This document shows, piece after piece, positions 29,550 through 30,849 of a stretch of 64,000 nucleotides of DNA. The notes under the pieces are model-generated. The model was given only the letters and a program-made list of their open reading frames with translations, was not told where the DNA came from and ran no database searches. How positions within the stretch are numbered: position 1 is the first letter of the stretch; each line of letters begins with the position of its first letter. A program made the translations under genes and the position numbers. Source of the stretch: a virus; IMG/VR virus record IMGVR_UViG_3300032242_001752, positions 24,563-88,562 of that record; one strand, 5' to 3'.

Positions 29550-29622
29550 GCCTCAATAGCTCAGTTGGTAGAGCGCAATACTTGTAATATTGATGTCGCG
29601 GGTTCGATTCCTGCTTGAGGCT
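29550..29622 (+). tRNA. tRNA-Thr(TGT)
   Basis: Acceptor GCCTCAA/TTGAGGC; anticodon arm CAATA-ctTGTaa-TATTG; TTCGATT T-loop; CCA not encoded. Confidence 0.95.
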
Positions 29623-29728
29623 CTTTTATGGTAAAATCTTCTTAGACACGCCAATCGGGTGTCATAAATAATACTGTGCTACGGGCAGTAAAAGTACCAA
29701 GGCACAGTTGTCGTCTAAAGGAGACAAC

Positions 29729-30283
29729 ATGAACATATTAAGTGATGAGTTCCCAGACCCATGGGATAAGCACAGAAATCCATATGACCCATATGGTAAA
29801 GCAATTCCAAATCCGCATGACCCTGCGGATGTTTATAAAAAGTGGCAAAAACCTGCCGCCCCTAAAGTCATTACTATTAATGACTTGTTTCCCAGCTTAG
29901 ACCGCTGGGCTATTGGCTATTCGTCAATCCTAGAACAACTTAAGGAAATGTCTGCTGTAAAGGCGAGCTACCCTCCTTATGACATTATTGACCAAAACCC
30001 ATTTTCCACCCTTATCAACGTCGCTGTGGCTGGTTTCACTAAAAAGGACCTTACAATCACAGTCGAAGAAAGGACGTTGAAAATTGAAGGAACAAAAGAA
30101 GAAAAAGAATCAGAAGGAACGCTCGTTCACAACGGCATTGCTGGACGCGATTTTAAACTCACCTTTGCCTTGGCTGAGTTTTATGAAGTAGAGTCAGCTG
30201 CTGTTAAAGACGGTATCCTAACGGTCAAGCTCATTAAAAATATTCCTGATGAAAAAAAGCCAAAGGTTATTGACATCAAGTAA
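29729..30283 (+). CDS. Small heat-shock protein (Hsp20)
   Basis: SYPPYDI, AVAGF, GIAGRDF, DGILTV; SD AAGGAG before ATG 29729. Confidence 0.9.
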   Translation: MNILSDEFPDPWDKHRNPYDPYGKAIPNPHDPADVYKKWQKPAAPKVITINDLFPSLDRWAIGYSSILEQLKEMSAVKASYPPYDIIDQNPFSTLINVAVAGFTKKDLTITVEERTLKIEGTKEEKESEGTLVHNGIAGRDFKLTFALAEFYEVESAAVKDGILTVKLIKNIPDEKKPKVIDIK

Positions 30284-30297
30284 TTTTGATGTAAACT
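30270..30297 (+). promoter_or_regulatory. Promoter for the RNA operon
   Basis: TTGACA-16nt-TAAACT; predicted start near the 14-bp hairpin at 30303-30339. Confidence 0.65.
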
Positions 30298-30343
30298 AAA
30301 AGTCCTCCCGGCAAGCTTTCGACGTGTTTGCCGGGGGGAGCTA

Positions 30344-30423
30344 GGGCCTGAAATGGTGTCGATTGCAGAACAAAGCCTCCAGTAGGAATCTGTAAGACCA
30401 CAGTTCAATTCTGTGCAGGTCCA
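30344..30423 (+). ncRNA. ssrA: Mini-tmRNA: tRNA-like domain only
   Basis: Acceptor GGGCCTG/CAGGTCC+A with G3.U70; stemless D-loop AAATGGTGTCGA; P2 TTGCAGA/TCTGTAA; GAC; T-arm CACAG-TTCAATT-CTGTG; 19-nt loop where the MLD should be. Confidence 0.8.
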
Positions 30424-30424
30424 C

Positions 30425-30590
30425 GATGCACGCATGTCCAGCGGCATTGGGGTCACGTACCTCACCTTAGTCGCGAGGCTAGGCGTTTAAGGCTCTTTAC
30501 TGCTGAGTCCACAAAACCAACCAGCAGAGCGAAAGCTTGAGACGACTCGCAAGAGTGGGAACGCCCGAAAGGGTCAGTACTAGGTTTTCC
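30425..30590 (+). ncRNA. Unidentified structured RNA with four GNRA-capped hairpins
   Basis: GCGA, GAAA, GCAA and GAAA tetraloop stems; AAAACC/GGTTTT closing helix. Confidence 0.55.
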
Positions 30591-30592
30591 AA

Positions 30593-30664
30593 TGACCATT
30601 AGCTCAATGGCAGAGCAGAGAGCTGTTAACTCTAAGGTTCCTGGTTCGAGTCCAGGATGGTCAG
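30593..30664 (+). tRNA. tRNA-Asn(GTT)
   Basis: Acceptor TGACCAT/ATGGTCA+G; AGAG-ctGTTaa-CTCT; CCTGG-TTCGAGT-CCAGG. Confidence 0.95.
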
Positions 30665-30684
30665 CTTTATGGTAAAATATAGGT

Positions 30685-30849
30685 ATGCCAAACGCACCTA
30701 AGACCCCGACGCGCACCGTAAGAGTGCCTGATGATCTGTGGCTTGCCGCTCAAAAAGAAGCCGCCAAGCAGGGAATCACCGTAACCAGCGTCCTTCTAGA
30801 AGCTCTAGAAAAATTTATTTCTGAGGGACTTGACAAAGTCTCAGAGTAA
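30685..30849 (+). CDS. Ribbon-helix-helix DNA-binding protein, 54 aa, probably leaderless
   Basis: MPNAPKTPTRTVRVPDDLWLAAQKEAAKQGITVTSVLLEALEKF; TGGTAAAAT 6 nt upstream of ATG. Confidence 0.75.
   Translation: MPNAPKTPTRTVRVPDDLWLAAQKEAAKQGITVTSVLLEALEKFISEGLDKVSE

Follow-up and report, generated by a model that had tools for sequence, protein, structure and literature searches.

A TLD-only tmRNA gene resembling that of Mycobacterium phage DS6A in an uncultured freshwater phage

The locus and the anatomy of the gene

The window analyzed here is a stretch of 64,000 nucleotides, bases 24563-88562 of an 88,562-base IMG/VR virus record (CheckV completeness 97%), and its source is an uncultured freshwater phage. 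On its forward strand lies an 80-nt gene for a mini-tmRNA, a tmRNA that consists of the tRNA-like domain (TLD) only (Table 1). The neighboring genes are typical of phages and encode an SNF2 helicase, a PA14-domain protein, an NlpC/P60 peptidase, Hsp20, Dam, a pyrimidine-dimer glycosylase and a family-A DNA polymerase. Of these, the polymerase has its closest counterparts in Streptomyces phages (full-length identity 39%), the tRNA-Asn gene is 86-88% identical to Streptomyces phage tRNA-Asn genes, and freshwater metagenome contigs carry versions of the hsp20-tRNA region that are 85-95% similar. Together this makes a freshwater actinobacterium the likely host. ARAGORN and Rfam call two tRNA genes in the window, tRNA-Thr and tRNA-Asn, and no others. 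The reverse strand of tRNA-Thr (window 29550-29623, -) also matches the Rfam family 'Plastid-ycf2 5'UTR', whose threshold of 65.7 bits is above the 41.7 bits scored; this is not a real feature here, the Rfam model evidently containing an antisense tRNA.

Table 1. Features of the mini-tmRNA gene and its surroundings, in window positions.
Feature	Position	Strand	Basis or remark
tRNA-Thr	29550..29623		ARAGORN, Rfam
Sigma-70-like promoter TTGACA-16-TAAACT	30270..30297	+	consensus scan; predicted
5' leader hairpin of the RNA operon, 11-bp stem, 13-nt loop	30304..30338	+	sequence
Mini-tmRNA (TLD-only tmRNA) gene, 80 nt, G1 to discriminator A73	30344..30423	+	R1 106.7 bits, R2 86.8 bits, covariation
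Acceptor stem 5' strand GGGCCTG	30344..30350	+	pairs with 30416-30422; sequence
Stemless D-loop analogue AAATGGTGTCGA, 12 nt	30351..30362	+	sequence; 5' half-profile alignment to tmRNA nt 1-23
P2 helix 5' strand TTGCAGA	30363..30369	+	pairs with 30389-30395; 7/7 pairs with two-sided changes
P2 cap ACAAAG-CCT-CCAGT-AGG-AA, 19 nt	30370..30388	+	small hairpin CCT-CCAGT-AGG at 30376-30386
P2 helix 3' strand TCTGTAA	30389..30395	+	covariation
GAC linker, P2 to T-arm	30396..30398	+	sequence; same G-A-C in E. coli and five other bacterial tmRNAs
T-arm CACAG / TTCAATT / CTGTG, 5 bp, 7-nt loop	30399..30415	+	sequence; Rfam tRNA model local alignment
Acceptor stem 3' strand CAGGTCC and discriminator A30423	30416..30423	+	sequence
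Neighbor module A, ~67 nt	30424..30490	+	directly 3' of mini-tmRNA; not part of gene
Neighbor module B, ~100 nt, GNRA-loop-rich	30491..30592	+	RNA-like; precedes tRNA-Asn; not part of gene
tRNA-Asn	30593..30665		ARAGORN, Rfam
54-aa open reading frame	30685..30849	+	right after tRNA-Asn

Every feature expected of a TLD is present in the 80 nt, as the original prediction had it from the letters alone: the acceptor stem with G3:U70 (the third pair, G30346:T30420) and A73, the stemless D-loop, P2, the GAC linker and the T-arm can all be read from the sequence. The ViennaRNA fold has the same four helices (-24.2 kcal/mol, z -1.8), and both sequence and fold describe AAATGGTGTCGA as a reduced D-loop that bears GG...UCGA and has no complementary partner. 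P2 is capped by 19 nt, again as predicted. In a full tmRNA the pseudoknots and tag frame would stand here; the cap is too short for a resume codon and tag frame. Pseudoknots PK1-PK4 are absent, there being no room for them between the P2 strands, where the cap forms a single 3-bp hairpin; the mRNA-like domain (resume codon, tag frame and stop codon) is likewise absent from these 19 nt, and ARAGORN finds no tag. The discriminator is followed by CGA, so that CCA is encoded in its first C (C30424) and no further. The tRNA-Thr and tRNA-Asn genes are each followed by C and do not encode CCA either, a parallel that had also been pointed out.

The gene had further been placed in a promoter-driven RNA operon before tRNA-Asn. 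A sigma-70-like site is indeed predicted upstream of it; tRNA-Asn, however, is not adjacent, as about 170 nt made up of two RNA-like modules lie between. The -35 box of the promoter falls within the final codons of hsp20, and a -10 box reading TAAACT or TATACT occurs at the same spacing in three related contigs (L005, L006 and L009) despite differing spacers, being less clear in a fourth (L004). The leader hairpin has no U-run after its stem. A 31-nt stretch of the leader is 100% identical in L009 (L009:3567-3597), where it precedes tRNA-Asn and not a mini-tmRNA, so we assign the hairpin to the operon and not to the TLD gene. In other relatives a different hairpin occupies the leader position. 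The hairpin may serve to protect the 5' end of the operon RNA or to direct its processing.

Neither downstream module matches an Rfam family, and neither travels with the mini-tmRNA. Module A stands beside a mini-tmRNA in only one other contig of 51 (L004/L007, 88% identity) and is unlinked in the other 49 loci. We had considered a 'split tmRNA' whose tag frame would come from module A, and this idea is ruled out by how rarely the module accompanies the mini-tmRNA. Module B contains hairpins, three of them GNRA-capped (GAGC-GAAA-GCTT, ACTC-GCAA-GAGT and GCCC-GAAA-GGGT). It is 94-98% conserved in L005/L017 and L093, and in L009 it bears an insertion and has no adjoining mini-tmRNA. The 54-aa reading frame that follows tRNA-Asn is conserved in both L005 and L009; no Pfam family matches it, and by eye its product looks like a ribbon-helix-helix DNA-binding protein.

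Covariation and kinship with known tmRNAs

A 28-mer from the T-arm and acceptor stem, matched exactly, led to four more viral contigs, in which compensatory changes occur in P2 (AGA/TCT, TCG/CGA, ACA/TGT) and in the cap hairpin (CCT/AGG, CCA/TGG, CCG/CGG). A covariance model, R1, was built from these four copies and that of the window, which represent a low-GC phage group only. Two wider pattern scans gave 55 copies, 43 of them distinct (alignment A3), with the acceptor stem left unconstrained in the set from the second scan. A looser pattern scan of IMG/VR matched at least 119 contigs; after filtering by script, at least 108 distinct sequences remained, 69-87 nt in length. The patterns prescribed parts of the D-loop and T-loop, and the last of them the final CCA as well, so some of the conservation in these columns is built in; no pattern constrained the helices.

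The helices covary strongly. Across the 43 distinct copies of A3, 98.7% of cells pair and 17 of the 22 pairs carry changes on both sides, with a covariation score of 0.592 against 0.158 for shuffled alignments (0/500 reach the observed score) and at most 0.09 for slid partners. Alignment A4, with 78 distinct, model-aligned IMG/VR copies among the matches listed, has 97.9% of cells paired, 18 of 22 pairs covarying and a score of 0.793 against 0.178 for shuffles. The slid-partner controls stay at or below 0.12 across alignments, and none of 500 shuffles reaches the observed score. All four helices contribute: P2 shows compensatory changes in 7/7 pairs in both A3 and A4, and the T-arm covaries at three of its five pairs in A3 and four of five in A4. 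The cap is a covarying 3-bp hairpin, whose third pair, U-A here, is replaced by A-U, G-C or C-G elsewhere; its loop is variable and 4-5 nt long, and there is no anticodon-like 7-nt loop. In the acceptor stem, pairs 4-7 each take four to six pair types with compensation (108 members among the matches listed). G3:U70, by comparison, is kept in 77/78 copies of A4 and in 103/108 distinct members among the matches listed, and A73 is present in 43/43 copies found with the acceptor stem unconstrained. A C follows A73 in 101/108 members among the matches listed, 25/108 of which encode the full CCA. The RNA structure and the alanine identity elements are under purifying selection, and because G3:U70 and A73 are kept while acceptor pairs 4-7 change freely, their conservation points to selection for alanylation.

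These data bear on whether the gene is a non-functional remnant, either of a full-length phage tmRNA that recently lost its middle, a possibility the original prediction had itself raised, or of an attP-type partial copy of host ssrA. In favor of such an origin, tmRNA genes often serve as sites of integration (PMC11915505), and full-length tmRNAs do occur in some phages (PMC4131195). However, the length is constant (77-81 nt in 101/108 distinct copies among the matches listed), and this, together with the heavy covariation, contradicts a recent deletion. The compensatory changes extend to P2 and to the cap hairpin, for which the host gene has no equivalent, and the 5' half is present, whereas attP copies lack it. 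Moreover, the gene occurs in otherwise unrelated phage genomes and this record contains no full-length tmRNA. We therefore consider a remnant of either kind highly improbable.

The closest known relative is found in Mycobacterium phage DS6A. R1 matches DS6A end to end (JN698994:28478-28557; 56.9 bits, E 2.4e-14) despite the 70% G+C of that sequence, and with a broader covariance model, R2, DS6A scores 77.1 bits and the window 86.8 bits. In the GenBank record, the DS6A region has no annotated feature at all. Work on this TLD-only tmRNA reportedly goes back to Mao et al. in 2009, to whom later papers refer. The form is published as a 'TLD only' tmRNA (PMC4131195, Hudson et al. 2014, Table 2 and text; PMC11915505), which corrects the earlier statement that known phage tmRNAs are full length. 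Both genes are phage-encoded and 80 nt long, and their parts follow one another in the same order: a 7-bp acceptor stem (G3:U70, A73), a D-loop lacking a stem (AATGG..TCGA in DS6A), a 7-bp P2, a cap in which an A-rich loop is followed by a hairpin (AAA-CCG-loop-CGG in DS6A), a 3-nt linker and the T-arm. They differ in G+C content (70% in DS6A, 49% here), in one extra D-loop base in DS6A and in the linker (CAC in DS6A, GAC here). The DS6A gene lies between protein genes, whereas that of the window lies in an RNA operon, and the host of DS6A is Mycobacterium, whereas here it can be narrowed to probably a low-GC freshwater actinobacterium. Given the end-to-end matches of R1 and R2 and the shared cap motif, the window gene very probably belongs to the DS6A-type family of TLD-only tmRNAs.

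Kinship with bona fide tmRNA was examined using separate nhmmer profiles of the 5' and 3' halves, run against a 16.6-kb database with E. coli ssrA and the tmRNAs of five unrelated bacteria. The 3' half-profile matched 6/6 (E 5e-8 to 0.012), covering in five of the six the final 30-33 nt and ending at the discriminator; in the sixth, from Fictibacillus, the match is shorter and falls at the end of an Rfam hit, which seems to be truncated at that point. The 5' half-profile found the first 23 nt of 4/6 tmRNAs as its top matches, with weak E-values (0.02 to 1.6) that are to be expected of so short a profile. E. coli ssrA has TGGATTCGAC at the D-loop position. By eye, the E. coli tmRNA termini read 5' GGGGCTG-ATTCTGGATTCGAC and 3' GGAC-GCGGG-TTCAACT-CCCGC-CAGCTCC-A, and the acceptor stem of E. 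coli is identical to the family consensus, GGGgcuG/CagcUCC. The literature defines a TLD by alanine identity, a reduced, stemless D-loop, a T stem-loop and a helix H2 that replaces the long variable arm (PMC3968760). The window gene has all of these, and lacks the tag frame, the pseudoknots and the Rfam score of a whole tmRNA. With bacterial tmRNA (SsrA; RF00023) it thus shares the acceptor with G3:U70 and A73, the stemless D-loop, the GAC linker, the T-arm and the position of P2, but bacterial tmRNA is ~340-410 nt long and includes pseudoknots, a resume codon, a tag frame and a stop, none of which the 80-nt gene has. The covariation, the DS6A match and the matches to tmRNA termini bear out the identification of the element as a phage TLD without an mRNA-like domain.

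Two other kinds of shortened tmRNA invite comparison. The CDS-less tmRNAs of jakobid and oomycete mitochondria (RF02544) and Mallomonadaceae plastids also consist of little more than the TLD and have no tag frame (PMC11915505), but they are organelle-encoded, with a nucleus-encoded SmpB, and the mitochondrial ones are of a permuted, no-CDS form. The organelle and phage reductions are probably independent. Laboratory TLD fragments, used for SmpB co-crystals and in vitro trans-translation, resemble the phage gene in that they join the two tmRNA termini by a short hairpin that closes P2, and they bind SmpB and accept peptide when charged. The fragment co-crystallized with SmpB, for example, links 25 residues from the 5' end and 34 from the 3' end of T. 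thermophilus tmRNA through a UUCG loop (PMC3929946). These fragments are man-made, whereas in the natural family P2 is longer (7 bp) and comes with a conserved A-rich internal loop and a hairpin.

The same comparisons weigh on the alternative that the gene encodes a degenerate tRNA-Ala-like RNA with a role outside trans-translation, such as a nuclease decoy (for instance, one aimed at a host tRNA-targeting defense nuclease), a modulator of AlaRS or EF-Tu, or a processing or punctuation element of the operon. The gene sits among tRNA genes here, 39/138 copies among the matches listed have a tRNA gene no more than 300 nt away, and the Rfam tRNA model gives a weak local match of 20.2 bits (gathering threshold 29), confined to the T-arm and acceptor stem. 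However, the D-loop, the GAC linker and the position of P2 are of the tmRNA type, the half-profiles find tmRNA termini, and the cap with its small, variable loop differs from an anticodon arm. The D-stem and the anticodon arm with 7-nt loop of a canonical tRNA-Ala are absent and ARAGORN makes no tRNA call; in addition, 94/138 copies (again among the matches listed) have no tRNA gene in the fetched locus. A role of this kind seems to us improbable.

Distribution and detection

Judged by its occurrence in related sequences, the gene is an accessory, movable cassette. Only two of 12 contigs whose Hsp20 is 77-86% identical carry a mini-tmRNA near hsp20, and whole-record searches of three near-complete relatives (87-100% complete) found none, so the gene is not essential to this type of phage. 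L009, the closest relative by Hsp20 (86%), has the same promoter and leader hairpin followed directly by tRNA-Asn, and one metagenome contig shows the same arrangement of leader and then tRNA-Asn. A complete 47.5-kb phage and a 45-kb contig have in common with the window, at the DNA level, the 83 nt of the gene at 87% identity and otherwise nothing, apart from one further stretch of 227 nt in the 47.5-kb phage.

Standard finders pass over the gene. ARAGORN makes no call at 30344-30423, and Rfam scans of the region, by gathering threshold and by E-value, give no tmRNA-family match on the element. Covariance models for tmRNA and mt-tmRNA, which had been proposed as a check, likewise return no match on it at E <= 10: with RF02544, 12 candidates were scored across the whole record and none reached that value, and with RF00023 the only candidate scored was the T-arm of tRNA-Thr, so that the element itself may have gone unscored. 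We read this silence as a limit of models built for full-length or organelle tmRNAs and of the first-look filter, and not as evidence against homology. In two contigs ARAGORN does report a 343-nt 'tmRNA' around a mini gene (L164:2976-3318, +; L223:4100-4442, -). Both calls are spurious, as their 'tag peptide' runs through the CCA-encoding mini-tmRNA gene, and annotation artefacts of this sort could hide mini-tmRNAs in databases.

A pattern scan of 185,579 species genomes gave 28 matches, none of them a true member by R1, and so yielded no prophage copy and no host. Among cultured phages, BLAST with the window copy finds no match, and BLAST with the DS6A copy finds DS6A only. One metatranscriptome contig of 170 nt covers 30342-30424 at ~87% identity and continues into a genomic-type flank, with no CCA; RNA ends are invisible in such a contig, and DNA carry-over is possible.

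Several other tRNA-like elements came to light in these searches. Unannotated stretches of Synechococcus phage S-CRM01 (L267:1466-1529, directly after tRNA-Leu) and Tunturiibacter phage Tunturi_5 (L268:1453-1527) have a tmRNA-type GGAC linker, T-arm and acceptor 3' end together with a poor 5' half; at 21 and 27 bits with R2, they were not counted as members. Contigs from Planctomycetota metagenome-assembled genomes contain clusters of ~68-73-nt tRNA-like elements (L133:897-964, -; L145:3216-3283, -; L131:99-169 and 2179-2251, -). Some of these have a GGGCUUG/CAGGUCC-A acceptor, with G3:U70 and A73, and a short closed central helix, and score weakly with R1 (23-27 bits). They may represent a different kind of anticodon-less alanine mini-tRNA.

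Possible roles in host ribosome rescue

We think it rather probable that the gene specifies a functional TLD-only tmRNA of the DS6A type that is transcribed, charged and in competition with host tmRNA, and this is the best explanation overall. The likeliest function is that of an alanine-charged mimic drawing host SmpB away from host tmRNA, although we put the inhibition or diversion of host trans-translation at no better than even odds. We propose that the RNA would be transcribed from the promoter at the hsp20 end as part of a small multi-RNA transcript and excised by host tRNA-processing enzymes, with RNase P acting at G1, together with a 3' trimming enzyme and the CCA-adding enzyme. Host AlaRS would then charge it with alanine via G3:U70 and A73. 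It would be bound by host SmpB and, once charged, by EF-Tu, and would be a competitor of host tmRNA, both for SmpB and for the ribosomes that stall on non-stop mRNAs. As the mini-tmRNA carries no tag frame, SsrA tagging and normal trans-translation would be suppressed during infection. No SmpB, RF-1/ArfB-type or Pth-type domain is encoded in the 88.5-kb phage record, so any SmpB and other partners must be those of the host.

Parts of this proposal have published precedent. G3:U70 and A73 suffice for AlaRS, and SmpB binds the elbow and D-loop of the TLD (PMC3968760, PMC3929946, PMC3895274). Laboratory TLD fragments co-crystallize with SmpB and accept peptide on ribosomes (PMC3929946, PMC3895274). 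According to PMC4131195 and PMC11915505, an SmpB decoy has been hypothesized for the DS6A form, and a similar molecule inhibited endogenous tmRNA in E. coli. As both the decoy idea and a TLD-only phage form are in the literature, neither is new, and the window copy adds nothing categorically new. The published form comes from one phage and takes up a few sentences; here there are at least 108 distinct IMG/VR copies. A tmRNA database of 2025 lists 9 'Standard, no CDS' entries among 97,179 sequences, with 79 bacteriophage sequences in all (PMC11915505). A simple pattern and a covariance model recover the family in otherwise unrelated phages, and ARAGORN and Rfam miss or mis-call all of its members. 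That at least 108 copies in unrelated phages have been missed in this way suggests that phages commonly interfere with host ribosome rescue or divert it, a strategy overlooked by annotation.

A less likely but plausible alternative makes the gene product a tag-free or alanine-tailing rescue RNA. Once charged, such an RNA would enter stalled ribosomes with SmpB and EF-Tu and accept the nascent chain, possibly repeatedly, and the ribosomes would be freed by host peptidyl-RNA drop-off and Pth, or by ArfB. Phage proteins made from broken mRNAs would then escape the SsrA degron, or rescue capacity would rise during host mRNA decay. The family-wide conservation of G3:U70, A73 and the following C suggests that charging matters. 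Beyond this, PMC3929946 (citing Shimizu and Ueda 2006) and PMC3895274 report that SmpB with a TLD fragment supports peptidyl transfer and template-free polyalanine synthesis in vitro, and jakobid and oomycete mitochondria, as well as some plastids, have retained CDS-less tmRNAs along with SmpB (PMC11915505). However, the RNA supplies no stop codon, and with no RF-1/ArfB-type or Pth-type hydrolase in the phage record, release would depend wholly on the host. Moreover, the one published test of a similar RNA gave inhibition and not rescue, as PMC4131195 and PMC11915505 describe it.

Within the favored explanation, a charged TLD-only tmRNA that competes with host tmRNA, simple titration of SmpB may not be the whole story. 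A pure SmpB sponge needs no strict alanine identity, and the published inhibition by a similar RNA was reportedly independent of chargeability (PMC4131195, PMC11915505). That chargeability is so strictly conserved suggests a function for the natural RNAs beyond sequestering SmpB. We speculate, tentatively and with the greater weight against it, that the charged mini-tmRNA is no passive SmpB sponge and would itself enter stalled ribosomes, giving a tag-free handling of non-stop complexes or one with template-free alanine tailing. On this active-substrate reading, G3:U70, A73 and C74, kept almost without exception in more than 100 diverged copies, would be the trace of a need for charging. The conserved alanine identity elements provide a concrete handle for telling a sponge from an active ribosome substrate.
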